From NCBI GenBank assembly GCA_002793435.1, contig PFQF01000027.1, positions 1 through 38,326 of the forward strand: DNA of 38,326 nt, given 5' to 3'. Shown one piece after another: positions 1 to 16,276 of this stretch. Both the position numbers and the translations under genes were made by a program. The DNA comes from Candidatus Berkelbacteria bacterium CG_4_10_14_0_2_um_filter_35_9_33_12 (lineage in GTDB: Bacteria; Patescibacteriota; UBA1384; GWA2-35-9). Positions within the stretch are counted from its first letter, which is position 1; each line of letters begins with the position of its first letter. The notes beneath the pieces were generated by a model, which had not been told where the DNA came from, searched no databases, and worked only from the letters and a program-made list of their open reading frames with translations.

Positions 1-3000
1 TATAACCTGCCAATAACTGCTTCAATAAATACAGCGACTAAAGTAGCAACCGGCAGTTATTCTGTAATTCCAAATACAATAACTTCTCTTTTACTGAATA
101 CTGACTACGATTTAATTTTTTCTGCTTCAAGAAATTCTGTTAGCTGTCCGAGTGTTTCAATAACACAGGTGTTTAGAGTAACGGTTCAATCTCCAACCAT
201 TAGTTCATTTACCGCCAATCCGACATCGGTACAGATTGGCGACGATTCAACCAAATATCAAAGTTCGGCATTGAATTGGTCGGCGACAAATGCCGAAACG
301 ATGAAAATCGAAGCTTACAATGTTACAACCAGTAGCTGGGGATTAGTGTACACGATTCCATCTAATCAGTTTGCAGGTGGATCACATTCTTTGCAACCAA
401 CTGATTCAGTGATTAACCGGACGACCAAGAAAATTCAATTAAGAGTCGTGGCTACACGAATGAATGCGTTGGATGCGATAAAAACATTAGATATTCCAAT
501 TACGCTTGTTTCCTGTCCGACCCAAGCAGGGACGACAATTATTGCCGATGATGCGATTATTCGTAAACCGGGAGGAACGACGATTCGTTGGAGTTCAATT
601 AATGATCCGGATAGTATTGTTATTTCGTATTTAACTCCTCAAAATACTTTTCCTCGTGGAAATGCAAAAAATCCAAGTGGTAGTCAGTGGGTAGAACCAA
701 CGAGTGATGTAACTTACACAAATACGACTAAAAAAGCTTATTGTTCTGATAAAACGGCTAGCGTTTTCATTAAGGTTTTAGAGCCCTGCCCAAAAGTTGA
801 CTACTTCAGATTTAAAAATTATGCTTCGACAACAAAAGAGATTACTCCCGGAGAGCCAGTAACGATTGAATGGAATATTACCAATAATCCATCTCAAATT
901 CAACACACTATCAATAATGGAACAAGCTGGTCAGATGTGACTGCAACTGGCAGTTATTCTTGGAACGCTTATTCGGGAGGAATAGTAAAAATGCGTTACA
1001 AGAGGTCTGATTGTAATTCAGGCAATTGGCAAGAAAGTGGTCTGCTAACACTTAATATTGTAGCTCCACCACAGGCGCCAACAATTAATGGACCAAACGA
1101 TGGTACCGAATTTAACGCTAAACCAGCCAATGGAATTTTTAACTGGTCAAATGTTTCAAGCGAGGGATATATTATTGATATATATCAAACAAGTAACAAT
1201 AGCATTAATCCGATCGATGATAGATCAGTTAGTTCGACAAGTTTTAGTTGGTCAGATACCGATTGGGGGAGCTTAAGCGACACAGCTTACTCGTGGCGAG
1301 TTCGAGCGAATAGCTCAAAATTTACAGTTGCTAATGACGGTCATTGGGTTAATTTAACAACGAATGAGAAAATGGTTAACTATCCCAAAGCTTGGAGTAC
1401 TCCTCGTAATTTTGTAAAATTGACTTCCTTAGGGAGTTTTGGCATTACAAGTCCGGCTTCTGGCACAGTCAAAGCTATGCCTCCAGAAATAATTTGGACA
1501 AGTTCTGATTTTGCCACTAGCTATACAATTAAATTTACCGATACGACAAATAGTAGTGTTGTCCTAAGCCAAGACATTGACAGCGCTGGATTTCTAGCTC
1601 GTCGTTGGACGATCCCGCTAGGCGATTGGAAAGATAAATTTGTCATTGACAGAAATTATAATATCCAAGTAATTGCTAAACGGAATACATTGACCCGAAA
1701 TAATGGAAGCGGACAACAGACATTAATTAAAAAAGAATTATTATTAGAGTGTAAAAAATACATTGATCTTCCTACATTATTAAATAACGAAAAATCGGGA
1801 AGTTGCGAAACTGATTTAAGTTACAACCACAAACCGTTATTTAATTGGTATTCTCAATCTTCGCCGACTTCAATATTAGGGCAAATGCCTCCCGAAATTA
1901 CGCCAATTGAAGTCAAGTGGGTTAAAGGCGCAACAACTTATACGCACATTTTATCAAGCGACGATATCGCCAACGGAAAATATACTCCTCCAACTGATAT
2001 GTGGCGAAGCCTTGAAGCTGGGCTGGATTGGACAGTAACTATGTACGCTAAATGGAACGGTCAGGTAGTAATACAGAGCAATCCATATACAATTCGAGTG
2101 CCGATCGAAAACCCGGATTTAGTCAGTCCAATAAGTAAAATCTATTATTCAAAACCAGCCGATACCGAATTTATGTGGACAGACAGTCGGACTGACCAAA
2201 CTTATCAAATCTATTTTTATAAAGATGGATCGACGACCCAAAGTTTTATTCTCTCAACAACAGTCAACGGTCAAACTTATCTTCCATGGACAACCAGTGC
2301 TTGGGATGCAGTACCGAACGGAAATTACAAAATTAAAGTTAAACGAACTAACGATCCAGTGATTTATATGAGCGATGAAGGTTCTTTTACCAAAGCGCAA
2401 CTTACGGCTCCCGTTTTTTCCAGCACAGTGCCAAACGGTTCAATGTTTTTCCAAACTGCACCGGCAAACAATACATACAAATGGAATAGCGTAACCAATG
2501 CGTCCGATTATATCGTTCAATTAAAAAAAGGCGATAGCAGTTTTAGTTCAAATAATGTTTCTGAACCGTTGAAAAATACAACTGGAGAAAAAGAGATTGT
2601 TGTTTCTGGCACAACAATTGATTTCAACGCCAAATATAACGGACGAGCCACAACTCTTTGGTCGGAATTGGATAATGGGTTGTGGTATATGCGGGTTGCC
2701 GGCAGGGTCTATTCCGGACAGAAAAATAATTATGTTTGGTCAAATGTGCTTTATCTTGAAAAACAGACGCCAAATTTAACTTTACTCAATTCAGCTCCAT
2801 TCGACCGAGAACTTAAACCGCAATTTAAATTCGATCCGCAAGCGTTACCAGACGATTTGGAAGTTAACTTATACACAACCGCTGGTCCCCACACACTTAC
2901 CTCAATTAATATTGGTAGAAAAGTTGTACTTTTAGGAAAAAATAAGATTCAATTAGATAATTTTTCTTATACAGAAGAACAATGGCGCAATATATTTTAT

Positions 3001-6000
3001 GGCAGTTGGCAGGTTTATTATATTGTTGCAACCAAAGCCGATCATATTGAGCGAGCCAGAAGTAATACAATTACATTTAGTAAAGATTTGCCAAGTCAAA
3101 CTAACCCGACTTTGACAGTAAATAAAACAACAGCAATGGAGCAGGAAAGAGTTAAATTTACTCTTAATTATCCACGGTCTGAAGTGGCGTTCGATCATGC
3201 TCTACCTAGCACTACTCTAAGTCCATTTATTACAACCAATTCTCTTGAATTATTATTTTCTAATAACAATTTTGATCTGAATAGTATCTCTAGCACAGAT
3301 CTTGACGGTGGAGCGGTTGATATAGTCCAGAATAAAATTACTTGGAGCATTGACTCTAATGCTAAAGATGGAAAAGTTATTTGGATTCCGATGGGCAATT
3401 CAGACAATTGTAATGGCGAAACTACAGTTACATTGAACAAAACAATTACGCCTCAATTTGGCAGTGAAATTATAAACAATTCGAATAATGTTTCAGTTAT
3501 CTACGATTGTCCGACTGGAACATTTGTTTTTGATCCAACTAAGACAAAGAAAACTAGAAGTGGTGGTCCAAACACAGACAATATAAAAAAGGGTGATATT
3601 TTAACTTATAAAATTGAGTATGAAGGTACTTTTACAAAAGGTTCGGGGAGCGGTGGTGGGGGAGAGGCTACTCTGTTCGAAAAAATTAAAAATATTCCCG
3701 ATAGTATTATTCAAAAAATAGCCCAAACATACAAAAATGCCGGTCAAAAAATTGCACGCATAAAAACCAATCGAATAAAACTAGCCAAAGCTCAAGAATT
3801 GACAACAATTTATGCCAATATTGATGGGTCTAGCCATGACATAACTTACCTGACTGAAAGTGCCAGGGGAAAAAGTTTAATATTAGATGGCAGGTATGGT
3901 TTAGGTGGCGACTTTATTTTTTCAGGGAATTTAACTTTTGATATCCAGTCTTTGACTTTGCTTAGTGGTGCTAAAATTTCAGGCACTGGAAATTTAACTG
4001 TCAATGCTAACAATTTTATCAAAATTTGTCGATCATGCAGTCTCAAAGTTAAGGGTTATAGTGGAGGAAGAATGACGCAGTGTCAGGCAACAGGAGGTCG
4101 AGGAAGTAAACCTGGCGGTAGTTCGATTGCTTCTTCCCCATACCCTGCGCTATGTGGAATCGCTGGTAACGGTGGAGATTGGGATCAGGGTGGCGCCGGC
4201 GGTGGCGCCGGCGGTGGAGATCTCGGGGTTGGCGGTGGTGGGGGAAATATTGGTGGAGGGGGAGGAGCTTTTACATCTAATTTGGGGGGGTCTTGGAATT
4301 TAGGCGGTGGCGCCGCCGGTGTTGGTGGAAAGGGAGCGATCGGTGTTAATAAGGCTATCAATGGTCAATCTGGAAATGGAACTAGTGCTAACGATCAATT
4401 GCAAACATGGTTGGCTTTAGGTAAAAAACTAACTCAAGGTGGTGGTGGTGGCGCTGGAGGCGGAAACTATTCAGGAGATCATTCAATTAATGAAGGACGA
4501 TTTGGTGGAGGAATAATAAGTCTTAAAACAAATCAAAATGGGACCATTTTCACTAAGGGTTTAATTAGCAGTAAGGGCGATGACGGAGAATACAAATTGA
4601 TGGGAGGTACAACAAATAAAATAGGCGCCGGTGGCGCTGGCGCTGGCGGGAGTATTAATTTGGACGCTGGGAATATCTATATTTGTCCGACAGATAATAA
4701 TCTGAAGCCATTATCGATGTTTGATGCACGGGGTGGTGATTCAGGCAGAAAGGATTATTCGGGTCATTCTAATTATGCGCTTCGATCGGGCGCTGGCGGC
4801 GGTGGCTTAGTCTCATTAAAGGCGACTAAAGTAATTGAAGTTGGCGATAACAATGTCGGAGTTGGGGTTAAGAATGATCTTCAAACTCAATTAAATTCTG
4901 TAGTAGCTGGTGGCGGTAATTACTCTTCGGTCACCAGTAATAAAAGTGAAAACGGGATTGCTAATCTTGAAATTGATGGCACGACTGGTAATAATGATGC
5001 TTCTTGCTCGGACGGTTTTGATGAAACTAATTTACCTGACGAGCCATCAGTTTCATTATGGGTTAACGGGGAGGATGTGGATGTAACTAGTCTGCCAAGC
5101 GGAACTGAAATTAATTTGACTTGGACACAAGACGGGGCAAATGATTTGAAGCTAGTAACCAAGGTTGGCGAATCGGCTGAAACAACTCCTCAAGATGTCA
5201 CTGCTAGTACATCAATTGCTTCGTTTCCTTTAGAGGATGATATTTACTTTAAAATTACTGCCTCAAATGCCAGTGGTTCGACAAGTGATACGGTTAAGAT
5301 ATTTCAATACGGAAGCACCAATTTGGCGAAAGGTATTCACATTATTGACACGCCAACCAATCTTGTGTCTGCTACAGGAGAAAGCGGAGAATGGGATTCT
5401 TCCACACAACCGCTGATATTTGATTTTGATGAAAGTACAAATATTTTTAAAGGAGAAGTCAATATCGAATATATTGTTCCCAGTGATATTTGTAATAAAC
5501 CAGTTAATGAAAGATCTATAAAAAATGAGGCAACTTTAATTCCGTACTTGGGAACGTATGCGAGTAATAACAGCACGGACTCGCCGTCGACTATCGAAAC
5601 CCTGCCCGAAGATGTTCAGTGCGGAGTTTCGGTTGGCGGGAATGTCCGAGCTCACAACATCGATGACAGAAAAATAACCTTTAAGGATGAAATTCCGAGT
5701 TTGTTGATTGTTGGTGAAGATAGTTCGTTAAGCGATCCAGGAAAAGGTAATATTCAATTTCTTAAGTATAATGGTTTAATTGATGTTGATATGATTAAAA
5801 AGCGAATCAATCGACTTTTTAAAGAATCAGCCAAAGGAAGTCCAGCATTATCTGGTTCATCCACTCAAACAGGAATTTGGAGGGTTGAAGCTGGCAAAAC
5901 TATTGCTGGAAATTATAGTAAAAAAAATACTTTTATTGTTAAAAATGCTGATGATTCAATAACCATTGACAATTTAAATGCATTACAATCCGTTGGTATT

Positions 6001-6297
6001 ATTGCTAAAGATACAAATATTAACATTGAGGGAATTAATAAGAATATTGCGATTTTTGCTTATGATACGGATACATTAGATGATATTTGTGATGTTGATG
6101 GTAATTGTAAAAAAAATAAAGGTAATGTAACATTTATCGGGGGTGATGATATTAATTTTACCGGCGCCATCGTAGCTGAAAGTATTTCATTGGGAGATAA
6201 AACGGGTAATATTGATTGGTCATCGCAATTACAAACCTATGTTCCGGAAGGATTTTCAGAGATATTGAGTCCATTAATTTCAGAGAAAGCGCCATAA
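1..6297 (+). CDS. Giant secreted/surface repeat protein, 5'-partial (at least 2098 codons visible): Cys-bounded Ig-like modules, six FN3-like modules, Gly-rich beta-solenoid-like core, C-terminal Ig-like plus unknown domain
   Basis: The ORF track starts at GTG 169, but frame 1 has no stop from nt 1 to 168. The upstream peptide (..SVSCPSVSITQ) repeats the module-boundary motif seen later (LVSCPTQ, LEPCPKV), so the true start is upstream of the window. Stop is TAA at 6295-6297. No LPXTG motif or C-terminal TM is visible. Function is unknown. Confidence 0.85.
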   Translation, partial: YNLPITASINTATKVATGSYSVIPNTITSLLLNTDYDLIFSASRNSVSCPSVSITQVFRVTVQSPTISSFTANPTSVQIGDDSTKYQSSALNWSATNAETMKIEAYNVTTSSWGLVYTIPSNQFAGGSHSLQPTDSVINRTTKKIQLRVVATRMNALDAIKTLDIPITLVSCPTQAGTTIIADDAIIRKPGGTTIRWSSINDPDSIVISYLTPQNTFPRGNAKNPSGSQWVEPTSDVTYTNTTKKAYCSDKTASVFIKVLEPCPKVDYFRFKNYASTTKEITPGEPVTIEWNITNNPSQIQHTINNGTSWSDVTATGSYSWNAYSGGIVKMRYKRSDCNSGNWQESGLLTLNIVAPPQAPTINGPNDGTEFNAKPANGIFNWSNVSSEGYIIDIYQTSNNSINPIDDRSVSSTSFSWSDTDWGSLSDTAYSWRVRANSSKFTVANDGHWVNLTTNEKMVNYPKAWSTPRNFVKLTSLGSFGITSPASGTVKAMPPEIIWTSSDFATSYTIKFTDTTNSSVVLSQDIDSAGFLARRWTIPLGDWKDKFVIDRNYNIQVIAKRNTLTRNNGSGQQTLIKKELLLECKKYIDLPTLLNNEKSGSCETDLSYNHKPLFNWYSQSSPTSILGQMPPEITPIEVKWVKGATTYTHILSSDDIANGKYTPPTDMWRSLEAGLDWTVTMYAKWNGQVVIQSNPYTIRVPIENPDLVSPISKIYYSKPADTEFMWTDSRTDQTYQIYFYKDGSTTQSFILSTTVNGQTYLPWTTSAWDAVPNGNYKIKVKRTNDPVIYMSDEGSFTKAQLTAPVFSSTVPNGSMFFQTAPANNTYKWNSVTNASDYIVQLKKGDSSFSSNNVSEPLKNTTGEKEIVVSGTTIDFNAKYNGRATTLWSELDNGLWYMRVAGRVYSGQKNNYVWSNVLYLEKQTPNLTLLNSAPFDRELKPQFKFDPQALPDDLEVNLYTTAGPHTLTSINIGRKVVLLGKNKIQLDNFSYTEEQWRNIFYGSWQVYYIVATKADHIERARSNTITFSKDLPSQTNPTLTVNKTTAMEQERVKFTLNYPRSEVAFDHALPSTTLSPFITTNSLELLFSNNNFDLNSISSTDLDGGAVDIVQNKITWSIDSNAKDGKVIWIPMGNSDNCNGETTVTLNKTITPQFGSEIINNSNNVSVIYDCPTGTFVFDPTKTKKTRSGGPNTDNIKKGDILTYKIEYEGTFTKGSGSGGGGEATLFEKIKNIPDSIIQKIAQTYKNAGQKIARIKTNRIKLAKAQELTTIYANIDGSSHDITYLTESARGKSLILDGRYGLGGDFIFSGNLTFDIQSLTLLSGAKISGTGNLTVNANNFIKICRSCSLKVKGYSGGRMTQCQATGGRGSKPGGSSIASSPYPALCGIAGNGGDWDQGGAGGGAGGGDLGVGGGGGNIGGGGGAFTSNLGGSWNLGGGAAGVGGKGAIGVNKAINGQSGNGTSANDQLQTWLALGKKLTQGGGGGAGGGNYSGDHSINEGRFGGGIISLKTNQNGTIFTKGLISSKGDDGEYKLMGGTTNKIGAGGAGAGGSINLDAGNIYICPTDNNLKPLSMFDARGGDSGRKDYSGHSNYALRSGAGGGGLVSLKATKVIEVGDNNVGVGVKNDLQTQLNSVVAGGGNYSSVTSNKSENGIANLEIDGTTGNNDASCSDGFDETNLPDEPSVSLWVNGEDVDVTSLPSGTEINLTWTQDGANDLKLVTKVGESAETTPQDVTASTSIASFPLEDDIYFKITASNASGSTSDTVKIFQYGSTNLAKGIHIIDTPTNLVSATGESGEWDSSTQPLIFDFDESTNIFKGEVNIEYIVPSDICNKPVNERSIKNEATLIPYLGTYASNNSTDSPSTIETLPEDVQCGVSVGGNVRAHNIDDRKITFKDEIPSLLIVGEDSSLSDPGKGNIQFLKYNGLIDVDMIKKRINRLFKESAKGSPALSGSSTQTGIWRVEAGKTIAGNYSKKNTFIVKNADDSITIDNLNALQSVGIIAKDTNINIEGINKNIAIFAYDTDTLDDICDVDGNCKKNKGNVTFIGGDDINFTGAIVAESISLGDKTGNIDWSSQLQTYVPEGFSEILSPLISEKAP
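4189..4218. repeat. In-frame 12-bp tandem repeat (ggtggcgccggc x2 plus partial ggtgga) inside the Gly-rich segment of the giant gene
   Basis: Direct reading: 4189-4200 and 4201-4212 are identical, followed by ggtgga. The stretch encodes GGAGGGAGGG. Confidence 0.9.
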
Positions 6298-6386: not shown

Positions 6387-6977
6387 TTGATTGACGAAAA
6401 TAATAATAACGAGCAAAAGGGATTTGTTAAATCTCTTGAGGTGCCGTTAATAGAAGAAAAAATCGGTCTTTTTCAGGTTGCAATGGAAATTTTGTTGTTG
6501 ATAACGATTGTTCAGTTTTTAGTAATTTTATTTACCACCACCCGATTGCATAGTGGTCTAGAACTATCAAAGTTAGAAATCGCTCAACTCGAGGAAAAAC
6601 TAAAAAATCCTCAATTAGTTCAGATTAAAGATCAGGTTGAAAATATTGGATCCCGAATTAAGCTTTTAGAATCAATTTTGGCAAAAAGTGAAGATTATAG
6701 CGATTTTTGGGAAGAAATTGAGCAAACTTTAGTTTCAGGGAGTGGTTATACTAGCATTACAATCGATAAAGATAAGACTGTAGTTTTAAGTGGTAAAACA
6801 ATCAATTATGAAGTTTTAGCTAAACTAATATCGAGTTTAAAATCTTCAAAAAAATTTACCGATATTAATTTAATCCAGTCGAGTAGTGATGAAAAAATAA
6901 AATCTTTTTCTTTAACGATGAAATATATTAAAGAAGAGGTTAAAAAAAGTCAAAATGAGCCAAGCAAAAAAGAGTAA
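6387..6977 (+). CDS. PilN-like type IV pilus alignment protein (bitopic: short cytoplasmic N-terminus, one TM, coiled coil, small alpha/beta domain)
   Basis: TTG start at 6387 is preceded by aggagggg (6373-6380). The architecture and position directly before a PilO-like gene and pilB fit PilN. The canonical PilM-binding INLLP-type N-terminal motif is not evident. Confidence 0.55.
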   Translation: MIDENNNNEQKGFVKSLEVPLIEEKIGLFQVAMEILLLITIVQFLVILFTTTRLHSGLELSKLEIAQLEEKLKNPQLVQIKDQVENIGSRIKLLESILAKSEDYSDFWEEIEQTLVSGSGYTSITIDKDKTVVLSGKTINYEVLAKLISSLKSSKKFTDINLIQSSSDEKIKSFSLTMKYIKEEVKKSQNEPSKKE

Positions 6978-7635
6978 TTTATCTTCGATAATCAGTTTTT
7001 TAATGTTTATTGCCTCGGTAGCAATCTGGTATTTTTTAATTCTACCTCAATTTGGCAAGTTTAAAGAGGCAAGTAATCAAGGTGCAATTTTAGGCGCAAA
7101 AGTTGAAGCGTTGACTAAAAATAATACGACCTTAGAATTATTAAAAAATCAGTTGACATCGACGCTTAACGATCAAAATAAACTTGACATTGCAATACCT
7201 AAAGAAACGCAAATTCCGGAAATTTTTATTACGGTTGAATCCTTAGCTCAAAAAACCGAAGTTGATGTAATTTCTATCAAGCCCGAGAATGAAGCAGTTG
7301 ATAATTTAATAAAAACAGTTATTGTCGTCGAAGCAGAATATCCAAATCTCAAGAATTTTATGCTTGGACTGACAAAAAATATTCGCCCAACTGTGACAGA
7401 AAGTTTTAAAGTGATTAAAAAAGAGGCAGAAGTATCAACCTCAACTAGTACTAGTGATGCTACCATTTCAGCTGAAACAAATAAAATCGAGACTTCTGGG
7501 CGTTCATTACAATCTGAAATTGTTGTCTATTTTGCGACTGCTCAAAAAAATACTGAGAAAAAATCTTCATCTGTCGAGACATCAAATAGTAATAAAGTAA
7601 CAACAAATAACGAGGAATTACACAATGCAGAATAA
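6955..7635 (+). CDS. PilO-like type IV pilus alignment protein (TM plus coiled coil plus C-terminal domain, Ser/Thr-rich tail)
   Basis: It overlaps the previous gene by 23 nt. It has an N-terminal TM (IISFLMFIASVAIWYFLILP), a coiled-coil segment, then a PilO-like pattern (IPEIFITVESLAQK..VVEAEYPNLKNFMLGL). Confidence 0.5.
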   Translation: MSQAKKSNLSSIISFLMFIASVAIWYFLILPQFGKFKEASNQGAILGAKVEALTKNNTTLELLKNQLTSTLNDQNKLDIAIPKETQIPEIFITVESLAQKTEVDVISIKPENEAVDNLIKTVIVVEAEYPNLKNFMLGLTKNIRPTVTESFKVIKKEAEVSTSTSTSDATISAETNKIETSGRSLQSEIVVYFATAQKNTEKKSSSVETSNSNKVTTNNEELHNAE

Positions 7636-7885
7636 AAATAATTTAACTTTTGGATTAATATTAATTCTTATCTCACTTGGTTTTTATCTTTATCTATTCA
7701 TTAGTTATAAACCTAAAGTAATTGAAGCTTTTGGCAGCGATACTGGTATTGTGCAAGTTGATGATAAAATATTTTCAAAAAATGTTTTGGAGGGTCTGAG
7801 AGAAAGGGAAGTTAATGGTCAATTACCAGTCGTGTTAAATCAGGATGATCACAGTGGAGAAAGTCCTTTTACCAAAGTAGAATAG
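7625..7885 (+). CDS. Small single-pass membrane protein of unknown function within the pilus operon
   Basis: ATG at 7625 with GAGGA 8 nt upstream. It overlaps the previous gene by 11 nt. One N-terminal TM (LTFGLILILISLGFYLYLFI). Confidence 0.5.
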   Translation: MQNKNNLTFGLILILISLGFYLYLFISYKPKVIEAFGSDTGIVQVDDKIFSKNVLEGLREREVNGQLPVVLNQDDHSGESPFTKVE

Positions 7886-7893
7886 TTAGTTTT

Positions 7894-10128
7894 ATGATTT
7901 TAAATACCAATTCGTTTTTAGATTATCTTTTTAAGCATCAAGTAATTAACAAAGCTGAAGCTTCTTTTTTAGAACAAAAATTTGGAGATATTTCTAAGAT
8001 CGTCGAGCTCATTGTTAACAAAAAAATTACTAACTATGAGCAAATATCTAAAATTTCAGCCGAAATATTAAATATTCCGTTTGCGAAACTTGAAGGAAGG
8101 GAAGTTGATTTAGGTATTTTATCGATTATTCCAGTTGATCTTTCAATAAAATATGGTTTGGTTGCCTTTGAAAAAGCTGGTAATGAAATAAAAGTAGCGG
8201 TGGCAAGACCTTATTTATTGCAAAGTTCTGATATTGGAGTCGCTGGATGGCTAAAAAATATTGATAAAGGGATTTACAGATTTTCAATTGTTGCCAGTAC
8301 AATCAATGATGTTGCTAACTTGATAAAAAATTATCAACAAAAAATTGATGCAGTCGTTCTAAGTAGCCAAAAAAAAGATAATCAAAATCAAATCATTACT
8401 TCTAATCTACCGACAATGGATTTATCCAATAGAGAGATTGATTTTGAAACAATATCAATATTTCCTGAAGAAATTGTTCGAAAGTATCAAGTAGTAGTGA
8501 TTGAAAAAGTATCAGATTCTTCACTTCGAGTTGGATTGATTGACCCAAACGATGAAAATACGCAAAAAACATTAAAATTTATTGAAAATAAAAATAATAT
8601 TTTTATTGAACAATATAAGATTACTCAAACTGATTTTGATCGTTTAGTTAGAAATTATCATCCTAAAATACAACCAACAGTTGAGGAAAAAGAAATAATA
8701 GGAAAAACTAACACGCAAATTCGAGGGGATGAAGTAAAATACCCAATAAAACCAATCTCAAAAAAGAACGATATAGGTCCAGTTAATATCAGTTTGGACG
8801 AAATTAAAACGATTCCGTCTACTAGTCCAGATGTACTTGCTGGGAAAACGACAATCAATGAAGAAGATAAGGGCTTAGAAGAAACTAACTTGGATAAATT
8901 TTTAGGCAAACCAGTAACAACGGTTGAAGAACTTTCGGAAAATATGAAGTCCGGTCAAATTCCTAAAATAGTCGCATCGTTAATTAGTTTTAGTATCATT
9001 ATTAAAGCCTCTGATATTCACATTGAGCCACAAAAAGATTTGTTAAGGATTAGATTTAGAGTCGAAGGTGAGTTGCGTGAATACTTAAAATTACCTATTT
9101 CTTTGCACCCGCTAATTTCATCTAGGATAAAAATATTATCCGGCTTAAAAATTGACGAACAAAGAATTCCTCAAGATGGTCGCTATGATGGAATTGCCAA
9201 TGGGCACGAAATTGATATTCGTGTTTCATCTCTACCGACAATTCATGGTGAAAAAATAGTTATGCGTGTTCTAGACAAAGATGCACAAAATTATCAGCTT
9301 GATAATCTCGGTTTAAATAATATTGATCAAAAGAGATTAACAAATGAAATTAATAAACCGTGGGGGATGGTTCTTGCGACTGGTCCAACAGGGTCGGGGA
9401 AAACAACCACTTTATATGCAGTTTTAAATAAAATATTAACTCCAAAAATAAATGTTATCACTCTGGAAGACCCGGTTGAATATCAAATTGAGGGAATTAA
9501 TCAAGTTCAAGTCAAACCTAAAATTGGTTTTTCTTTTGCGGAAGGATTGAGAAGTATTTTGAGGCAGGATCCAAACATAATTATGGTGGGTGAAATTCGG
9601 GATAGCGAAACTGCCAGTTTAGCGACTCAATCGGCTTTGACTGGTCATTTGGTACTATCAACTTTACACACCAATTCATCTTCGGGTGCTTTGCCAAGAT
9701 TAGTTAATATGGGGGTTGAGCCGTATTTAATTACTTCAGCTGTCAATGCCATTGTTGCTCAGAGATTAATCAGAAAATTGTGCCAAGATTGCCGAGTTGA
9801 AAAGGTAATGCCTGACGCCGAGTTAGAAAAGATTAATGAGATGATCAAAGATAAAGTAAAAGTTGATTTAAAAACTACTAAATTCTATGATAAAGGGGAA
9901 GGTTGTGATAAATGTCATGATGGATTTTTCGGCAGAGTTGGCTTGTATGAAATATTAGTTATGAGTGATAAAATTGAGCAAGCGATAATTACTAATAAAC
10001 CGGCGACCGAAATTGAAACTATTGCTAGAAACGAAGGTATGATTACACTTCTACAAGATGGTATAATAAAAGTATTGAAGGGTTTAACTTCGTACGAAGA
10101 GGTTTTAAAAGTAGCTATGGATAAATAA
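7894..10128 (+). CDS. pilB: Type IV pilus assembly ATPase PilB (GspE family) with an extended N-terminal region
   Basis: Intact Walker A GPTGSGKTT, Asp box ITLEDPVEY, Walker B DPNIIMVGEIRD, His box TGHLVLSTLHTN, and a tetracysteine motif CQDC...CDKC. At 744 aa it is longer than the usual roughly 560 aa. Confidence 0.93.
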   Translation: MILNTNSFLDYLFKHQVINKAEASFLEQKFGDISKIVELIVNKKITNYEQISKISAEILNIPFAKLEGREVDLGILSIIPVDLSIKYGLVAFEKAGNEIKVAVARPYLLQSSDIGVAGWLKNIDKGIYRFSIVASTINDVANLIKNYQQKIDAVVLSSQKKDNQNQIITSNLPTMDLSNREIDFETISIFPEEIVRKYQVVVIEKVSDSSLRVGLIDPNDENTQKTLKFIENKNNIFIEQYKITQTDFDRLVRNYHPKIQPTVEEKEIIGKTNTQIRGDEVKYPIKPISKKNDIGPVNISLDEIKTIPSTSPDVLAGKTTINEEDKGLEETNLDKFLGKPVTTVEELSENMKSGQIPKIVASLISFSIIIKASDIHIEPQKDLLRIRFRVEGELREYLKLPISLHPLISSRIKILSGLKIDEQRIPQDGRYDGIANGHEIDIRVSSLPTIHGEKIVMRVLDKDAQNYQLDNLGLNNIDQKRLTNEINKPWGMVLATGPTGSGKTTTLYAVLNKILTPKINVITLEDPVEYQIEGINQVQVKPKIGFSFAEGLRSILRQDPNIIMVGEIRDSETASLATQSALTGHLVLSTLHTNSSSGALPRLVNMGVEPYLITSAVNAIVAQRLIRKLCQDCRVEKVMPDAELEKINEMIKDKVKVDLKTTKFYDKGEGCDKCHDGFFGRVGLYEILVMSDKIEQAIITNKPATEIETIARNEGMITLLQDGIIKVLKGLTSYEEVLKVAMDK

Positions 10129-10130
10129 TT

Positions 10131-11192
10131 ATGCAATCAACCAATATTTCAATCAGGATTTTAGATAGTGCCATTGAGCAAAATGCTTCAGATGTTCTTT
10201 TATTAGTTGGGGCTCCGCCGTTGCTTAGGATTGATGGACGAATTTATGCGATTTCAGGATTAAATCCGCTTGATAATTCAACCAACGAATTAATTTTAAA
10301 AAATTTGGTCGGAGAAAATAAAATTAGAGATTTAGAATCAAAAAAAGAAGTTGATTTCTCTTTGTCGTATAAAAATTTTCGAATTCGTGGTTATGCTTAT
10401 TATCAAAAACAAACAGTTGCGATTAATTTGAGAATTATTTCTCAAGAAATTAAAAGTTTTAGCGAATTAGGTCTCCCTCCAATTATTGAAAAATTAGCTA
10501 GTAGTAACCAGGGTTTATTAATTATTTCCGGTCCAACCGGACACGGAGTTTCAACCACTTTGGCTTCAATTATCAATCATATTAATTCTAATTTTAATCG
10601 TCATATAATTACACTCGAAAATCCAATTGAATATTTATTTCCATACAAAAAGTCAATTATTTCTCAACGAGAAATTGGGCGAGATGTAATTTCTTATTGT
10701 GAAGGGTTAAAAAATATTACCAAAGAAGATCCAGATGTGATTATGCTTAGCGAATTGAGAGATAATGATGCGCTAGAAATGGCTATAGAGTTAGCTGAAA
10801 TTGGGCATCTAGTAATTATTTCGAGCAATGCAATGTCAATTAGCCAAGCAATTGATAAAATAATTGATAATTTTGAACCAAATAAACAAGACGCAATGTG
10901 GCAAACGGTAGCGAATAGCTTGTTGGGGATTATTTCACAACGTTTAATCCCTAAAGCTAATAAAGGTAGAGTTTTAATTGCTGAAGTAATGATGAATAAT
11001 CCAGCTATAAAATCGTTGATTAAAGAAGGCAAAACTAATCAAATTGAAAATATTATTGCTACTTCGGCTGACGAAGGCATGATGTCGATTGATCGAGTTT
11101 TAGCTTCATTGGTATCAAAAGGAGAAGTTAAAATTGATACAGCGCTATCGTGGGCAAGAAATCCAAAAACCTTAAAAGAACTGATTTATTAG
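10131..11192 (+). CDS. pilT: PilT-family retraction ATPase homologue with degenerate catalytic motifs
   Basis: Full-length colinearity with PilT (ASDVLLLVGAPPLLRIDG, DPDVIMLSELRD, NPAIKSLIKEGK). However, Walker A reads GPTGHGVSTT (Val140 at 10548-10550 replaces the Lys). The His box reads GHLVIISSNA (Asn233 at 10827-10829 replaces the His). Confidence 0.85.
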   Translation: MQSTNISIRILDSAIEQNASDVLLLVGAPPLLRIDGRIYAISGLNPLDNSTNELILKNLVGENKIRDLESKKEVDFSLSYKNFRIRGYAYYQKQTVAINLRIISQEIKSFSELGLPPIIEKLASSNQGLLIISGPTGHGVSTTLASIINHINSNFNRHIITLENPIEYLFPYKKSIISQREIGRDVISYCEGLKNITKEDPDVIMLSELRDNDALEMAIELAEIGHLVIISSNAMSISQAIDKIIDNFEPNKQDAMWQTVANSLLGIISQRLIPKANKGRVLIAEVMMNNPAIKSLIKEGKTNQIENIIATSADEGMMSIDRVLASLVSKGEVKIDTALSWARNPKTLKELIY

Positions 11193-12257
11193 TTGATTAT
11201 GAATTTAAATATTAATATATCATGGTTTGATAGAGTTACGATAAAAGATAAAGCTTTTTTTGCTGAACAAGTTGGAACAATGATTCAGTCTGGGCTACCA
11301 TTAGTCCAAGCGATTGATGTAATTAGTCAACAAACTAAAAAAGAAAAATTTAAAAAAGTTTTAGAAGATATTCATAAGGATATTGAAACTGGCAAAACTT
11401 TTTCTGAATCAATTAAAAAACATCCAGAAATTTTTGACAGAATATTTTCTAATATGGTTATGGCTGGAGAAGCATCGGGAAAACTGGATGAAGCGTTAGT
11501 TGAATTGGCTCGCCAAATAAACCGTAATAATAATTTTATCTCTAAAATTAAAGGGTCGCTTTCGTATCCAATTTTTGTGATTGTGGTAATGTTGGGAGTA
11601 GGTATTTACGCTACGGTCAAAATAATTCCGTCTTTAACTGGGGTTTTTAAAGAAGCCAATGTGACCCTTCCTTGGTCAACCAAACTAGTTATGGCGCTTT
11701 CCGATTTTATGATTCATTATTGGTATTTATTAATTTTGATAATAGTTGTAGCCGGTGTTGTTGTATACTATTATTTAAAAACCGACAATGGAAGATGGAA
11801 TCGGGATCTATTATTAACTAAAGAACCAACCAAATTAGCTACTAAAATCTATATGGCAAGATTTTCTCGGACATTGGGATCGTTGTTAAAAAATGGCATT
11901 CCGATCATTGAAGCAGTTGATATTGTTTCAGAAACTATCAATAATTTAGTGATTGAAAAATCATTAAAAAATGTAATTCAGGAATTAGAAAAAGGTATCC
12001 CGATGAGTCAACCGATTAAAGAAGATAAAAATTTTCCGATCTTTATTTCGCAGATGATGGCAGTTGGGGAACAAACCGGTCGAGTCGATCAAATTTTGTT
12101 ATCATTGGCTGATTATTTTGAACAAGATGTCGAAAATAATATTAAAAATATATCCACATTGTTTGAACCAATAATAATTGTTATAATTGGTATAGGAGTC
12201 GCTTTTCTGATATTTTCGATTATTCTGCCAATCTACTCAATTTCACAAGGAGTCTAG
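11193..12257 (+). CDS. pilC: Type IV pilus platform protein PilC (GspF family)
   Basis: Two GspF-type repeats with three TM segments, and typical motifs (FSxMVxAGEASGxLD, ISQMMAVGEQTGRVD). TTG at 11193 directly follows the pilT stop. An alternative ATG lies at 11199. Confidence 0.9.
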   Translation: MIMNLNINISWFDRVTIKDKAFFAEQVGTMIQSGLPLVQAIDVISQQTKKEKFKKVLEDIHKDIETGKTFSESIKKHPEIFDRIFSNMVMAGEASGKLDEALVELARQINRNNNFISKIKGSLSYPIFVIVVMLGVGIYATVKIIPSLTGVFKEANVTLPWSTKLVMALSDFMIHYWYLLILIIVVAGVVVYYYLKTDNGRWNRDLLLTKEPTKLATKIYMARFSRTLGSLLKNGIPIIEAVDIVSETINNLVIEKSLKNVIQELEKGIPMSQPIKEDKNFPIFISQMMAVGEQTGRVDQILLSLADYFEQDVENNIKNISTLFEPIIIVIIGIGVAFLIFSIILPIYSISQGV

Positions 12258-12321
12258 GATAAATTACCAATTACTACATCTCTCTGGTCGAAGAGATGAT
12301 AAGAAAAAATATGGAGGAAAT

Positions 12322-12723
12322 ATGTTTAACAAAAAAAACAAGGGATTTACATTAATTGAATTGTTAGTGGTTATTGCTATTATTGGTATTTTGGCGGGAA
12401 TTGTGGTGGTTGCAGTGGGTAATTCAAGAAATAAAGCGACTAATGCAAAAGTAATTGCAAGCTTAGAAAATATTTGTAAAACGATTGCAATTGATGCCGT
12501 ATCTTCATCAACAGGTTTAAACACTTTGACAAATGGAGCGTCGGGAACAAGTGGTTCATTACTGAAAGCTTTGGGAATTACTACTCTTCCTACTGGAATC
12601 ACAACAACACCAGCAACTCCTGCTACCAGAGCTGCGGCAATAACTAGTGTGAAGGGAACGTATACTGATGGATCCGGTATCACCAAAACATGCAATTCTA
12701 GTAGTAATTGGTCAGTAATTTAA
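12322..12723 (+). CDS. pilA: Major type IV pilin (class III signal peptide)
   Basis: GGAGG at 12313-12317. The leader is MFNKKNKG followed by FTLIELLVVIAIIGILA with Glu5. It sits immediately before the prepilin peptidase gene. Confidence 0.9.
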   Translation: MFNKKNKGFTLIELLVVIAIIGILAGIVVVAVGNSRNKATNAKVIASLENICKTIAIDAVSSSTGLNTLTNGASGTSGSLLKALGITTLPTGITTTPATPATRAAAITSVKGTYTDGSGITKTCNSSSNWSVI

Positions 12724-12745
12724 ATCAATATTATAATTAGAATTT

Positions 12746-13456
12746 GTGATCGAATTGTTTGGTTTTGTGTTCGGAGCGGTTATCTCATCTTATCTTTATA
12801 CAACAGTCGAAAGAAATGTAGATAGCAAAAACAAGACGCTTTTTTCTCGGTGTAATAAATGTAAAAAGCGTCTTGTTTGGTATGAATTGGTGCCATTATT
12901 AAGTTATTTAATTCAACTCGGAAAATGTCGGAAGTGTAAAAATATTATTCCAATTCGCTATTTTTTGCTTGAGCTTATTTTTGGGCTGATATTTTTATTC
13001 TTTTATTTATTTTTTAATAATTTGATTGAAGCAATTGGTTTGTGTTTAATCTTTTCAATACTATTTTATATTTCTTATTATGACTTTTTAACTCAAGAAA
13101 TTTCTGAAATCGCACTAGCGTTATTATTTGTAGTAATATTAATTTCTTTATTTGTACTTAATAATATTACTATATTAAATCTTTATGGTGCTTTGGTATC
13201 AGGAGGAATAATTTTCCTTTTTTATTATCTATCTAAAGAAAAAGCAATGGGCTTTGGTGATGTCGAGTTAGTGCTAGCTCTTGGTTTTTGGATTGGTTCA
13301 GAATGGTCATTATATTTTATTTTTTTAGCTTTTATTTTGGGTGGAATTTATGGCGCAATCGTACTGTTATTTAAAATCTCTAAACTAAAAGACCGAGTTG
13401 CCTTCGGTCCGTTTTTAGCCCTCTCATCATTAATAATTTACATTTTCTCCATATAA
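12746..13456 (+). CDS. pilD: Prepilin peptidase / N-methyltransferase PilD (peptidase A24)
   Basis: GTG start. It has the CNKC...CRKC cysteine pairs, polytopic TMs, the GFGDVEL (GxGD) motif and a C-terminal FGPFLA motif. Confidence 0.9.
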   Translation: MIELFGFVFGAVISSYLYTTVERNVDSKNKTLFSRCNKCKKRLVWYELVPLLSYLIQLGKCRKCKNIIPIRYFLLELIFGLIFLFFYLFFNNLIEAIGLCLIFSILFYISYYDFLTQEISEIALALLFVVILISLFVLNNITILNLYGALVSGGIIFLFYYLSKEKAMGFGDVELVLALGFWIGSEWSLYFIFLAFILGGIYGAIVLLFKISKLKDRVAFGPFLALSSLIIYIFSI

Positions 13457-13457
13457 A

Positions 13458-13492
13458 CTGTTACATTTCTTCGATGTATGTAACGGTTTATA
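13458..13492 (+). terminator. Hairpin plus T-rich tail after pilD (possible intrinsic terminator or attenuator)
   Basis: ctgttacat (13458-13466) pairs with atgtaacgg (13478-13486), giving a 9-bp stem with one G-U. It is followed by tttataattt. Confidence 0.4.
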
Positions 13493-13523
13493 ATTTATTA
13501 AATCAATGATAAAATATATGTAG

Positions 13524-14006
13524 ATGAAAAAAACACCATTAAAAATGGGCTTTTCTTTGATAGAGCTATTAGTAACTATTTCAATTCTTGTTTTATTAAC
13601 CGGTTTGACAATTCCATCTTATCGAAGTTACCAACGCAAAACCGGACTTGATTATTATAGTAAATTGATAAAAAACGAAATCCAATTTGCTCGATCGTAT
13701 TCATTATCTCCACCTACGGAACATATTGGCTTTGATATGTTTGGAGTCACGATCAACACAACCAACAATACTTTTCAAAAGATAAAAAAATCAAGTGACA
13801 CTGGTGATGTTATTACAATTGAATCACCATTAATTATTGATGGTGATTATACATTGGCAACTACTAGTAGTCCTCCCGAAATATATTTTGAAGTTGGAAG
13901 AAATGGAGAAATAAGCAGTGAGGTTGTTGTTGAATTAACAGAAAAAAACCTTAGTCAAACAAAAACAATAACCGTCAATCAATCAGGATTAATAACTATA
14001 AATTAA
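13524..14006 (+). CDS. Minor pilin / pseudopilin (GspH/FimU-like)
   Basis: Prepilin N-terminus MKKTPLKMG followed by FSLIELLVTISILVLL. Confidence 0.8.
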   Translation: MKKTPLKMGFSLIELLVTISILVLLTGLTIPSYRSYQRKTGLDYYSKLIKNEIQFARSYSLSPPTEHIGFDMFGVTINTTNNTFQKIKKSSDTGDVITIESPLIIDGDYTLATTSSPPEIYFEVGRNGEISSEVVVELTEKNLSQTKTITVNQSGLITIN

Positions 14007-14476
14007 TGTTCATTATTAATAAAAAAAAATCAGCCTTTGGGCTAATTGAAACGATAATTGCATCCGGGATTTTAATTGTTGTGGTTGGAGCATTAGCTTT
14101 AGTTTCAAGTGTAGTTCTAAAATCGTCTCGCCAAACAAGCGAAGATTTAATGGCAAATTATTTAATCTATGAAGTTTTTGAATCAGCACGGCAAATTAGA
14201 GGTACAAATTATATTGATGAAAATTCTGACACTAGTTGGGATAATGGATTGACGATCGGGGATGTAAAATTAAATTTTGCTGATCCATTAATACCAAGTT
14301 TTGGTGTTTCGACGGAGGAAAAAATCAATGATGTGCGAGGAATTGACTACACAAGAAAAATTAATCTTAAAAAAATATCGACTGACAAAATAAAAATTAC
14401 AGTTACAATCACATGGGGTGATAGTAAAGAAAGAAAATCAGCCATTATATTAACTAATTATGAACAAGGTTTTTAG
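14006..14476 (+). CDS. Minor pilin (PilV/GspI-like)
   Basis: TAATG overlap with the previous gene. The N-terminus is KKKSA followed by FGLIETIIASGILIVV (Ala at -1, Glu5 present). Confidence 0.7.
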   Translation: MFIINKKKSAFGLIETIIASGILIVVVGALALVSSVVLKSSRQTSEDLMANYLIYEVFESARQIRGTNYIDENSDTSWDNGLTIGDVKLNFADPLIPSFGVSTEEKINDVRGIDYTRKINLKKISTDKIKITVTITWGDSKERKSAIILTNYEQGF

Positions 14477-15053
14477 GAATAAAAAAAGAAACGGTTTTAC
14501 TTTAGTCGAAGTTCTAGTTGCTATGACAATATTTTCGATGGTAGTGGTTATGTCTGCGACAACTTTTACTTCTTCGTCAAATGTGAATAGAAAAATTAGT
14601 GGTTCAAGCTTAATCCAAGAAAAAATTTCAGTTTTTCTTGATCAAATGTTGAGTGAAATACGACAGGCAAAATACGCATATTTTGAAACAGATTCATCTA
14701 AAAATAGACTAACAATTATTATGCCCGACCCGAACTTACCAAATAATGAAATAACCAAAATTTATCAAGTCAATAAGACCAGCGGGAAGATCACGGGAAT
14801 TACAGTTAAAAAAAATAGTGAAACGACTCAAGATATTGATATGAATGGAGTTGAGATTAAAGAGTTTGTATTTTCTGGCAATCCTGTCAGTAACGGAATA
14901 GATGGTAGTGTAAATAATGAAAAAACTATAATAAATTATCCATTTATTCGAGTTAATGCGATTTTTGCTTCGAGTATTGATAAAACTGTGCCGGACTATG
15001 AGATTAATACAATTATGACATTACGCAATTTCAAAAAAGATTATAGTGATTAA
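14460..15053 (+). CDS. Minor pilin (PilW/GspJ-like)
   Basis: 17-nt overlap with the previous gene. The N-terminus is NKKRNG followed by FTLVEVLVAMTIFSMVV. Confidence 0.75.
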   Translation: MNKVFRNKKRNGFTLVEVLVAMTIFSMVVVMSATTFTSSSNVNRKISGSSLIQEKISVFLDQMLSEIRQAKYAYFETDSSKNRLTIIMPDPNLPNNEITKIYQVNKTSGKITGITVKKNSETTQDIDMNGVEIKEFVFSGNPVSNGIDGSVNNEKTIINYPFIRVNAIFASSIDKTVPDYEINTIMTLRNFKKDYSD

Positions 15054-15834
15054 AAAATTTAACCATAAAAAAGGTTCATCATTGATTATTGCAGTTCTTT
15101 TAATTGGTGTTGTTTCAGTTGTTTCTTTCGGGGTGAGTAGTTTGACGATGAATGATATGAAATTACACCGTCTATTTGTTGGTTCGGGTGAAAGTTATTA
15201 CGGAGCTGAAAGCACTATGGAGGAAGCGTTGCTTGAAGTAAAAAATGATCGTAATTATTCAACGACTGGACCAGTTAATTCAGCGATAAACGGGGGGGAT
15301 TTAACCGCAAATCACATTGCTACATATTATGGCGATTATTTTTATATTGAAAAAATTAAAAAAGACGATTTTGTTGATGTGCTATTGGGGGTGGATTATG
15401 CAACCGGAGATGAATTATGTATTGCACGATTTGATACAAATGATCCAATTATTCAAATAACCGAAAACGGAGGAGGTGGGGTACTTAATCGTACTAATAT
15501 ATACCCAGTATCTAATCCCGCCCAGTACGCAATAATCAATAATGATCCAGTTTCAATAAGAATAAATTTTATTGGACCAGAAGTTAATAATCTTTATATC
15601 AAATCAACAGACGATAACTGTTCAAACATAGACATAAGTACTCTAGAAAAACTTAAGAATAGCATTATTGGATTAAACAAAAAATACGATATTGATACTG
15701 GCAGTTTAACAATCAAGGCGACTGGGACTTACAAAAATTTAAACCGCCAATTGCAAGCGACGATTGATAGAAAAAGTGGCACCTTGCTTAATATCTTTGA
15801 CTTTACTCTTTACTCAATTGGTGATATAGACTAA
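15046..15834 (+). CDS. Large minor pilin lacking Glu5 (PilX/GspK-like)
   Basis: GTG start and 8-nt overlap with the previous gene. The N-terminus is HKKG followed by SSLIIAVLLIGVVSV, with no Glu at +5, as in GspK-type tip pseudopilins. It is the largest of the four. Confidence 0.55.
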   Translation: MIKKFNHKKGSSLIIAVLLIGVVSVVSFGVSSLTMNDMKLHRLFVGSGESYYGAESTMEEALLEVKNDRNYSTTGPVNSAINGGDLTANHIATYYGDYFYIEKIKKDDFVDVLLGVDYATGDELCIARFDTNDPIIQITENGGGGVLNRTNIYPVSNPAQYAIINNDPVSIRINFIGPEVNNLYIKSTDDNCSNIDISTLEKLKNSIIGLNKKYDIDTGSLTIKATGTYKNLNRQLQATIDRKSGTLLNIFDFTLYSIGDID

Positions 15835-15844
15835 ATTATATTTT

Positions 15845-16276
15845 ATGAAAATAATTACAATTAACACTGATGGTGGAGCTAGGGGCAACCCCGGTCCAGC
15901 CGGAATCGGGATAGTAGTTTCAGATGGGAAAAATAAACTAGCTGAAATTAAAGAAAAAATTGGGGAGACAACTAATAATGTTGCCGAATATAGAGCCGTT
16001 ATTAAAGCGCTCGATTGGTTGCAAGAAAATATTGACCAAATAAAGCCGGATCGGATTAATTTTAATCTTGATTCAATGTTGATTGTCAATCAAATTATTG
16101 GGAAATATAGGATTAAGCAGGAACATTTAAAACTATTAAATCAAAATATTCAAGAAAAGATTAAACTATTTAATATTCCGATTAATTTTAATTATATTCC
16201 ACGAACTCAAAACAAAATTTCTGACAAACTTGTCAATCAAGTTCTCGATGAAAAAACAAGCTTATCAAATAAATAG
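15845..16276 (+). CDS. rnhA: Ribonuclease HI (RNase H type 1 fold)
   Basis: Motif run TDGGARGNPGPAGIG ... NNVAEYRAVIKAL ... LDSMLIV ... SDKLVN fits the DEDD catalytic pattern. Confidence 0.8.
   Translation: MKIITINTDGGARGNPGPAGIGIVVSDGKNKLAEIKEKIGETTNNVAEYRAVIKALDWLQENIDQIKPDRINFNLDSMLIVNQIIGKYRIKQEHLKLLNQNIQEKIKLFNIPINFNYIPRTQNKISDKLVNQVLDEKTSLSNK

Follow-up and report, generated by a model that had tools for sequence, protein, structure and literature searches.

A conserved PilT orthologue with a degenerate active site in the type IV pilus operon of Candidatus Berkelbacteria

A stretch of Candidatus Berkelbacteria DNA (contig PFQF01000027.1, positions 1 to 38,326; hereafter the window, meaning the stretch at its full length of 38,326 nucleotides) carries, within a type IV pilus operon, a gene for a PilT-family protein in which the Walker A lysine, the second histidine of the His box and the interface threonine have all been replaced, and which is maintained by strong purifying selection. 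The gene and its product are referred to here as pilT* and PilT*. The explanation somewhat favoured by the data is that PilT* is a maintained pseudo-ATPase, which docks on the PilC platform without hydrolysing ATP and serves as a brake, a lock or an adaptor; as a part of the same explanation, and with the same modest confidence, the catalytic loss is placed once, at the base of one Candidatus Berkelbacteria subclade.

The open reading frame (ORF) at 10131-11192 on the forward strand is a bona fide full-length PilT-family protein. It is intact (353 aa, ATG to TAG), as described in an earlier reading of the DNA that was made without database searches (the sequence-only reading), and its product exceeds the cutoff of the TIGR01420 model (362.1 bits against 319.1, over residues 10-346 of 353). 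Searches with HMMER matched it to solved PilT structures, including those of Aquifex (2EWV, E=3e-74) and of Geobacter metallireducens PilT4 (6OJX), and to the Pseudomonas aeruginosa PilU (9N32, E=2.6e-65, TM-score about 0.86). An AlphaFold2 (AF2) model built on a 72-sequence alignment (pLDDT 90.8, pTM 0.86) was aligned by Foldseek with the ATP-bound PilT4 structure 6OJX at a TM-score of 0.94 and a root-mean-square deviation of 1.6 Å, with the two-domain fold (N2D and C-terminal domain, CTD) present, so that the identification as a PilT homologue is borne out both by the family model and by the structures.

Residue numbers in PilT* are those of P. aeruginosa PilT plus four and those of G. metallireducens PilT4 plus three. 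In this numbering, and on the forward strand throughout, Val140 (10548-10550, GTT) takes the place of the Walker A lysine (P. aeruginosa K136), Ile224 that of the interface threonine (G. metallireducens T221) and Asn233 (10827-10829, AAT) that of the second His-box histidine (P. aeruginosa H229, G. metallireducens H230), while 100% of the 115 canonical homologues carry K, T and H at positions 140, 224 and 233. The placement of Val140 and Asn233 at the two catalytic positions, proposed earlier from a colinear comparison of motifs, was confirmed by profile alignment. The Walker A remnant GPTGHGVSTT (10530-10559), aligned with GPTGSGKSTT, has valine for the invariant lysine but keeps the P-loop glycines and the Ser/Thr; the Asp box ENPIE (10617-10631), aligned with EDPIE, keeps both glutamates and has Asn164 for the aspartate (G. 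metallireducens D161); the Walker B remnant DVIMLSELRD (10734-10763), aligned with DVIFVGEMRD, keeps the glutamate as Glu208 (P. aeruginosa E204), with the invariant glycine and methionine changed to Ser207 and Leu209; and in the His-box remnant IGHLVIISSNA (10800-10832), aligned with GHLVFGTLHT, Ile224 and Asn233 replace the threonine and the histidine, and His226 remains. Lys198 corresponds to G. metallireducens R195. The counterpart of the AIRNLIRE helix of PilT, AIKSLIKE (11004-11027), is retained with conservative arginine-to-lysine changes, as had been claimed, and the C-terminal helices (residues 311-353; 11061-11189), with their clade-specific tail NPKTLKELIY, form the most constrained part of the protein. 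PilT* thus fails the Walker A pattern GxxGxGK[ST] at the lysine and the His-box pattern T-G-H-x(6)-H at both the histidine and the threonine, and passes for the Walker B glutamate and the AIRNLIRE-type helix; the residues kept in the window protein are G134, G137, G139, Ser141/Thr142, Glu163/Glu167, Glu208, His226 and Arg84/Arg101.

Two further departures from the model PilTs were considered as lesions and turned out not to be diagnostic. The histidine in GPTGHG, listed in the sequence-only reading along with the change from lysine to valine, is the normal state in the Candidate Phyla Radiation (CPR) lineage, since most canonical CPR PilTs read GPTGHGKSTT; the change at the lysine stands. The Asp box does read ENPIE, but its asparagine does not distinguish the degenerate proteins, as three canonical PilTs (P0041, P0078 and P0116) also have ENPIE and two members of the degenerate clade described below (P0003 and P0004) keep EDPIE.

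The functional weight of the three lost residues is known from model PilTs. The ATP-contacting H230 is conserved throughout the PilT/VirB11 family, and the T221-H230 contact, a proposed proton relay, is specific to the closed, hydrolysis-competent interface (McCallum 2019, PMC6858323); PilT* therefore lacks both partners of this pair besides the P-loop lysine. H229A abolishes twitching (PMC6858323) and K136A abolishes PilT function (PMC9815625). With these published mutants as a guide to its sequence, PilT* appears to be without a credible hydrolytic site and is predicted not to hydrolyse ATP.

The degenerate state is not confined to the window. The latter has a GC content of about 33% and belongs to a CPR/Patescibacteria genome. 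The GroEL that it encodes shares 94% identity with the one from Berkelbacteria bacterium GW2011_GWA2_35_9, all other near matches with a name come from Candidatus Berkelbacteria, and the DNA of the window recurs in a large number of metagenomes from groundwater and aquifers. Within the 120 best homologues of PilT*, five clusters (P0001-P0005, with 100, 84, 75, 73 and 55% identity to the window protein) are degenerate and all lack Lys140 and His233, whereas the remaining 115 of 115 keep Lys140, Glu208 and His233 in the canonical form GPTG[HS]GKSTT ... GEMRD ... TGHLVxTTLHT. A second search, seeded with P0005, added 83 further CPR proteins from outside the clade, 82 of them canonical (the exception being P0335), and a sixth member, P0275, from Candidatus Berkelbacteria bacterium Licking1014_85 (GCA_007376495.1), which has isoleucine in place of the lysine along with E208D and H233Q. 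The canonical CPR PilTs thus number about 197, P0006 and P0015 being examples from Berkelbacteria. Within the clade, a protein identical to that of the window is encoded in GCA_002773935.1, and the P0002 lineage is that of GW2011_GWA2_35_9. The Walker A lysine, the His-box histidine and the interface threonine are absent from all six clusters, which reach down to 53-55% identity, and the losses of lysine and histidine are hence not a strain lesion, an outcome that the sequence-only reading had left to a comparison of orthologues. K140V/I (V/V/V/V/I/I), T224I/V, H233N/K/Q and H23L are common to the six members, and F78L, M209L/F and L232S/C are tabulated in P0001-P0005 only; the latter five are monophyletic in a neighbour-joining tree that did not contain P0275.

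Further losses mark individual sublineages, namely E208D in P0002 and P0275, H226C in P0005, R86C/G in P0003 and P0004 (G. metallireducens R83, beside the nucleotide site) and T136G/A in P0005 and P0275. The earlier statement that the Walker B glutamate is retained therefore holds for the window protein but not for the clade. Such a mosaic is expected if catalysis is no longer selected after one ancestral inactivation. The helix segment PAIKSLIKEG is identical in P0001-P0004, and P0005 reads PPIKSLIREN. Across 10 contigs that were assembled independently and stem from different samples, the DNA of pilT* shows 0 differences, the window protein is indexed in 63 blocks of the searched collection, and the genomes of the clade span 33-45% GC. 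A metagenome scan seeded with P0005 returned no new clade members, the nearest match having at most 47% identity, and none of the RNA runs contained pilT*. An exhaustive search of the representative library with the clade profile brought up tandem fusions as its top matches but not the clade, which is merged with the canonical PilTs when clustered at 50%.

The position of the gene is equally conserved. All clade members with flanking DNA (L001-L007 and L030) have the same gene order around pilT*, and the order pilN-pilO-orf-pilB-pilT-pilC-pilin-pilD is identical in the degenerate loci L001, L004, L005 and L030 and the canonical loci L008, L026 and L027. Since an intact pilT fills exactly the slot between pilB and pilC in these three canonical CPR loci, pilT* is their positional orthologue; it is the orthologue of the CPR operon PilT and not a paralogue. 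In one of the canonical relatives (L026), a 95-aa PF00437 fragment at 9627-9914 lies between pilB (712 aa) and pilT, and is apparently the C-terminus of pilB, detached by a split or a frameshift.

Purifying selection on pilT* is strong overall, with the constraint shifted from the Walker B/His-box block onto the C-terminal helices. When the window is compared with lineage L001 (84% identity), the approximate ratio of nonsynonymous to synonymous substitution rates (dN/dS) is 0.095 by the Nei-Gojobori method (NG86) and 0.044 by maximum likelihood (ML), similar to the values for pilB (0.055 and 0.037) and pilC (0.045 and 0.029); deeper pairs are unusable for this purpose, because their dS is saturated. 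By region, dN/dS rises from 0.03 in the C-terminal helices to 0.07 from Walker A to the Asp box, 0.10 in the N-domain, 0.17 in the middle of the CTD and 0.27 in the Walker B/His-box block. In canonical PilTs, 113 columns reach an invariance of at least 95%, and of these 66 are kept by all five of P0001-P0005 and 47 are not; most of the latter fall in residues 199-240, where 7 of 25 invariant columns survive as against 16 of 21 in residues 286-353. When the clade and the canonical PilTs were compared at equal overall diversity (mean pairwise identity 0.67 and 0.65, respectively), the mean identity of the Walker B/His block was 0.60 in the clade versus 0.84, that of the C-terminal helices 0.88 versus 0.74 and that of the AIRNLIRE-type helix 0.80 versus 0.63. 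The order of rates within the operon is also inverted. Pairs of canonical lineages share 73-75% identity in PilT, 48-53% in PilB and 45-54% in PilC, whereas the pairs within the clade share 84/75/55% in PilT*, 89/89/61% in PilB and 95/77/64% in PilC, PilT* thus being faster than PilB and PilC, the opposite of the canonical lineages. The dN/dS of 0.04-0.10 speaks against relaxed decay and, together with the confirmed substitutions and their presence in the orthologues, upholds the earlier proposal of a maintained gene rather than a decaying one, the loss of ATPase activity being predicted.

Comparison with known systems helps to define what such a protein may do. PilT* has the family, fold, length and AIRNLIRE-type helix of canonical PilT (TIGR01420; P. 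aeruginosa 3JVV, PilT4 6OJX, Aquifex 2EWV) and the same operon slot between pilB and pilC as canonical CPR PilT, but differs in the missing Walker A lysine, His-box histidine and interface threonine and in the degraded Walker B context GEMRD. PilU is another member of the TIGR01420 family, but it has catalytic activity and depends on PilT for its access to the machine. PilT*, by synteny the orthologue of CPR PilT and not of PilU, reaches no further at its C-terminus than canonical CPR PilT does. FlaH of the archaellum motor is a nucleotide-binding, essentially non-hydrolysing RecA/KaiC-like partner that regulates FlaI, an ATPase of the PilT/VirB11 superfamily. It may serve as a functional analogy for a pseudo-ATPase in a type IV filament machine, though it belongs to a different family and is not a degenerate copy of the motor.

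The closest likeness is to PilTs inactivated in the laboratory (V. cholerae K136A; P. aeruginosa E204A and H229A), in which the same classes of residues have been removed as in PilT*. These engineered proteins still fold, dock stably on PilC and can bridge PilU (PMC9815625, bioRxiv 10.1101/2025.10.30.685630, PMC6858323), and are thus a direct precedent for roles of the PilT ring that are independent of ATP. They are point mutants, in contrast to PilT*, which is natural, altered at multiple sites, clade-wide and maintained by selection with a shifted constraint.

In the pseudo-ATPase explanation, PilT* would still assemble as a PilT-like ring, and this ring would dock on the PilC platform in competition with PilB. 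Unable to cycle through the ATP-driven closed interfaces, it would end or gate the extension driven by PilB, and the pilus would either be held statically, as by a brake or lock of the kind that would suit an episymbiont in its attached state, or undergo slow, unpowered disassembly only. The roles put forward in the sequence-only reading, namely a brake, a non-retractile pilus and a partner of another PilT, are likewise hypothetical. A precedent for the docking of PilT* comes from V. cholerae, where PilT proteins mutated in Walker A gather at the pilus machines in stable foci that depend on PilC, and also bridge PilU (bioRxiv 10.1101/2025.10.30.685630). Nucleotide may also have remained a ligand of PilT*, though no longer its fuel, as suggested by the conserved P-loop glycines, the Ser/Thr, the Asp-box glutamates and the N-domain arginines.

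Several points weigh against this explanation. Since Glu208, His226, the P-loop and the arginines are kept, some activity of a residual or unconventional sort is conceivable, and the catalytic loss, the hexamer formation and the PilC binding of PilT* are predictions. In V. cholerae, retraction is lost when ATPase-dead PilT acts without PilU, and in the case of the MSHA (mannose-sensitive haemagglutinin) pili piliation is lost (PMC9815625), so that a dead PilT alone is not obviously beneficial. The clade is known from six sequence clusters only, four of which are on contigs shorter than 7 kb, and the dS of about 0.9-1.8 is near saturation even in the closest pair, which makes the dN/dS values approximate. 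Finally, the choice between a brake or lock and an adaptor would hinge on a second PilT or PilU, none of which was seen within the 38-kb window and the flanks of the relatives covered by the search.

A stronger version of the proposal, held only tentatively, is that the sole PilT-family partner of PilB in the subclade is a natural pseudo-ATPase. The job of its ring would then be essential and independent of ATP, consisting in gating or locking PilC or in sensing nucleotide, and retraction would be absent, passive or driven solely by PilB.

The main rival, considered rather unlikely, is that the silent PilT* bridges a second, active PilT or PilU, encoded elsewhere in the genome, to PilC, and that this partner powers retraction; it takes this rank because PilU can power retraction via an ATPase-dead PilT. 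According to the V. cholerae reports (PMC6821130, PMC6762196, PMC9815625), PilU is inactive without PilT and yet drives retraction with the ATPase-defective K136A protein, and PilT bridges PilU to the machine (bioRxiv 10.1101/2025.10.30.685630). The most strongly constrained surfaces of PilT* are non-catalytic, as an adaptor would have them, and tandem PilT-PilT fusions with a degenerate domain occur in the representative library, in some cases paired with a domain that is canonical in Walker A, Walker B and His box. However, no second pilT-type PF00437 gene was found, the 38-kb window holding pilB and pilT* only and the fetched flanks of the relatives likewise. A scan of genome contigs yielded only distant PilTs of unrelated phyla, the source genome not being among its matches. 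An abundant co-occurring canonical PilT, P0080, was rejected as a paralogue from the same genome, as it lies in a complete pilus operon of its own on contigs of 42-43% GC, as against 33% in the window, and thus belongs to another organism. CPR genomes are moreover small, and the Saccharibacteria strain TM7x is reported to have a single PilT.

It is improbable that PilT* continues to power retraction as an ATPase, slowly perhaps, by means of non-canonical residues (His138 in the P-loop, or a lysine or arginine in trans). The gene is under strong purifying selection, and the P-loop backbone, Ser141/Thr142, Glu163/Glu167, Glu208, His226 and Arg84/Arg101 are all present in the window protein. Yet such activity would depend on residues that vary within the clade: no part of PilT* evolves faster than the former catalytic block, the supposedly kept catalytic residues are lost in sister proteins (E208D, H226C, R86C/G), and the replacements, N, K or Q at position 233 and V or I at position 140, show no convergent chemistry. 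His138 is also found in canonical CPR PilTs that keep the lysine, and K136A and H229A abolish function in the model PilTs (PMC9815625, PMC6858323). A recently inactivated relic drifting towards loss, with which the faster evolution of PilT* relative to its neighbours would agree, or an assembly or sequencing artefact, is very improbable in view of the intact full-length ORFs in six clusters down to 53-55% identity from genomes of 33-45% GC, the dN/dS of about 0.04-0.10, a C-terminal region more conserved than in canonical PilTs and the identical DNA in 10 independent assemblies.

Degenerate PilT-like proteins were also encountered sporadically in unrelated lineages, with substitutions other than those of the PilT* clade. 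The single-domain proteins P0250 (GPAGAGTTTT), P0230 (GPHGSGLSTT), P0221, P0245, P0190 and P0335 have independently had the Walker A lysine replaced by T, L or R and/or the His-box histidine lost; some of them may be errors or single-strain lesions. Taken together with the degenerate halves of tandem fusions, they lack at least one of three residues, the Walker A lysine, the Walker B glutamate and the His-box histidine. This applies in particular to P0335, which is otherwise fully canonical (GPTGHGTSTT, K to T) and may be a strain lesion or an error. Five proteins of about 660-735 aa (P0129, P0133, P0180, P0191 and P0233) are tandem PilT-PilT fusions with one or both halves degenerate in Walker A, Walker B or His box, and may represent active/inactive pairs of PilTs in covalently joined form. 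The existence of these sporadic and tandem forms indicates that catalytic loss in the PilT family is probably recurrent. A published naturally degenerate PilT, or a CPR PilT without Walker motifs, was not found in the searchable literature, beyond which a publication may exist, and the PilT of Saccharibacteria is explicitly reported with intact Walker boxes. The Berkelbacteria clade is a conserved, operon-embedded and orthologous case of PilT degeneration, with comparative evidence for its maintenance.

According to the Pfam matches and ORF calls, the region 6387-15834 is a single compact type IV pilus operon with the order pilN-pilO-orf-pilB-pilT*-pilC-pilin-pilD-minor pilins, all on the forward strand. 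It begins with a pilN-like alignment-complex gene (6387-6977; PF05137, 31.5 bits; at the same place in the relatives) and a pilO-like gene (6955-7635; PF04350, 27 bits; syntenic in the relatives), followed by an 86-aa ORF of unknown function without a Pfam match (7625-7885), whose slot between pilO and pilB is filled by an ORF of 85-89 aa in degenerate and canonical loci alike. The extension ATPase gene pilB (7894-10128; 744 aa; PF00437, 420 bits, with MshEN domains) encodes a protein in which all the catalytic motifs are intact on translation (GPTGSGKTTT, EDPVEY, GEIRD and GHLVLSTLHTN). Its stop at 10128 is separated by 2 nt from the start of pilT* at 10131, and the stop of the latter at 11192 abuts the pilC start, which is either TTG at 11193 or ATG at 11199. 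The platform gene pilC (11193-12257; PF00482 T2SSF, 197 bits, two repeats) is followed by a candidate major pilin (12322-12723; PF07963 N_methyl, 43 bits), the prepilin peptidase gene pilD (12746-13456; PF06750 and PF01478) and four overlapping or abutting minor-pilin-like genes (13524-15834; 160, 156, 197 and 262 aa; syntenic in the relatives). Of the proteins that these encode, the one of 197 aa has a clear N_methyl motif and those of 160 and 156 aa a weak one.

Some other features of the operon and its surroundings deserve mention. No recognisable pilM, the actin-like ATPase partner of PilN, was seen in the operon, either in the window or in the loci of the relatives. PilM normally forms the cytoplasmic ring that contacts PilB/PilT, and for the docking of the motors it matters whether PilM is missing or encoded elsewhere. 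The N-terminal part of PilB (7894-10128) contains two MshEN-type stretches (PF05157), a domain that binds cyclic di-GMP in MshE. Directly 5' of pilN, on the same strand, a giant ORF (169-6297) of at most 2042 aa has a long Gly-rich central region and no Pfam match; large ORFs are found at the matching position in relatives (446 aa in L001; 726 aa, with a weak DUF7305 match, in L030), and it may encode a pilus-associated surface or adhesin protein. An RNase H/RVT_3-type gene (15845-16276, forward strand) lies right after the minor pilins, a position kept in L001 and in the population contigs, and a 664-aa ORF without a Pfam match (21521-23515, forward strand) lies amid housekeeping genes (ychF, a xerC/D-like recombinase, an M16 peptidase, isoleucyl-tRNA synthetase and ftsW).

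Of the proteins that make up the type IV pilus machine, PilT is as a rule the best conserved, and ATPase activity is regarded as its function. In the uncultivated groundwater Candidatus Berkelbacteria studied here, it has probably become a non-enzymatic part of the pilus machine. The catalytic residues are gone and yet the protein is strongly selected, which argues for a role of the PilT ring that is independent of ATP hydrolysis, in agreement with the engineered-mutant work, in which ATPase-dead PilT docks on PilC and bridges PilU. If the sole PilT partner of PilB is indeed dead, the clade would constitute a natural separation-of-function experiment for PilT, and structural studies of motor-platform complexes find in PilT* a ready-made "dead" PilT that nature has already stabilised. 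The pili of CPR/Patescibacteria are thought to mediate host attachment and DNA uptake, and a locked or non-retractile pilus, if true, would alter the picture of attachment in these organisms.

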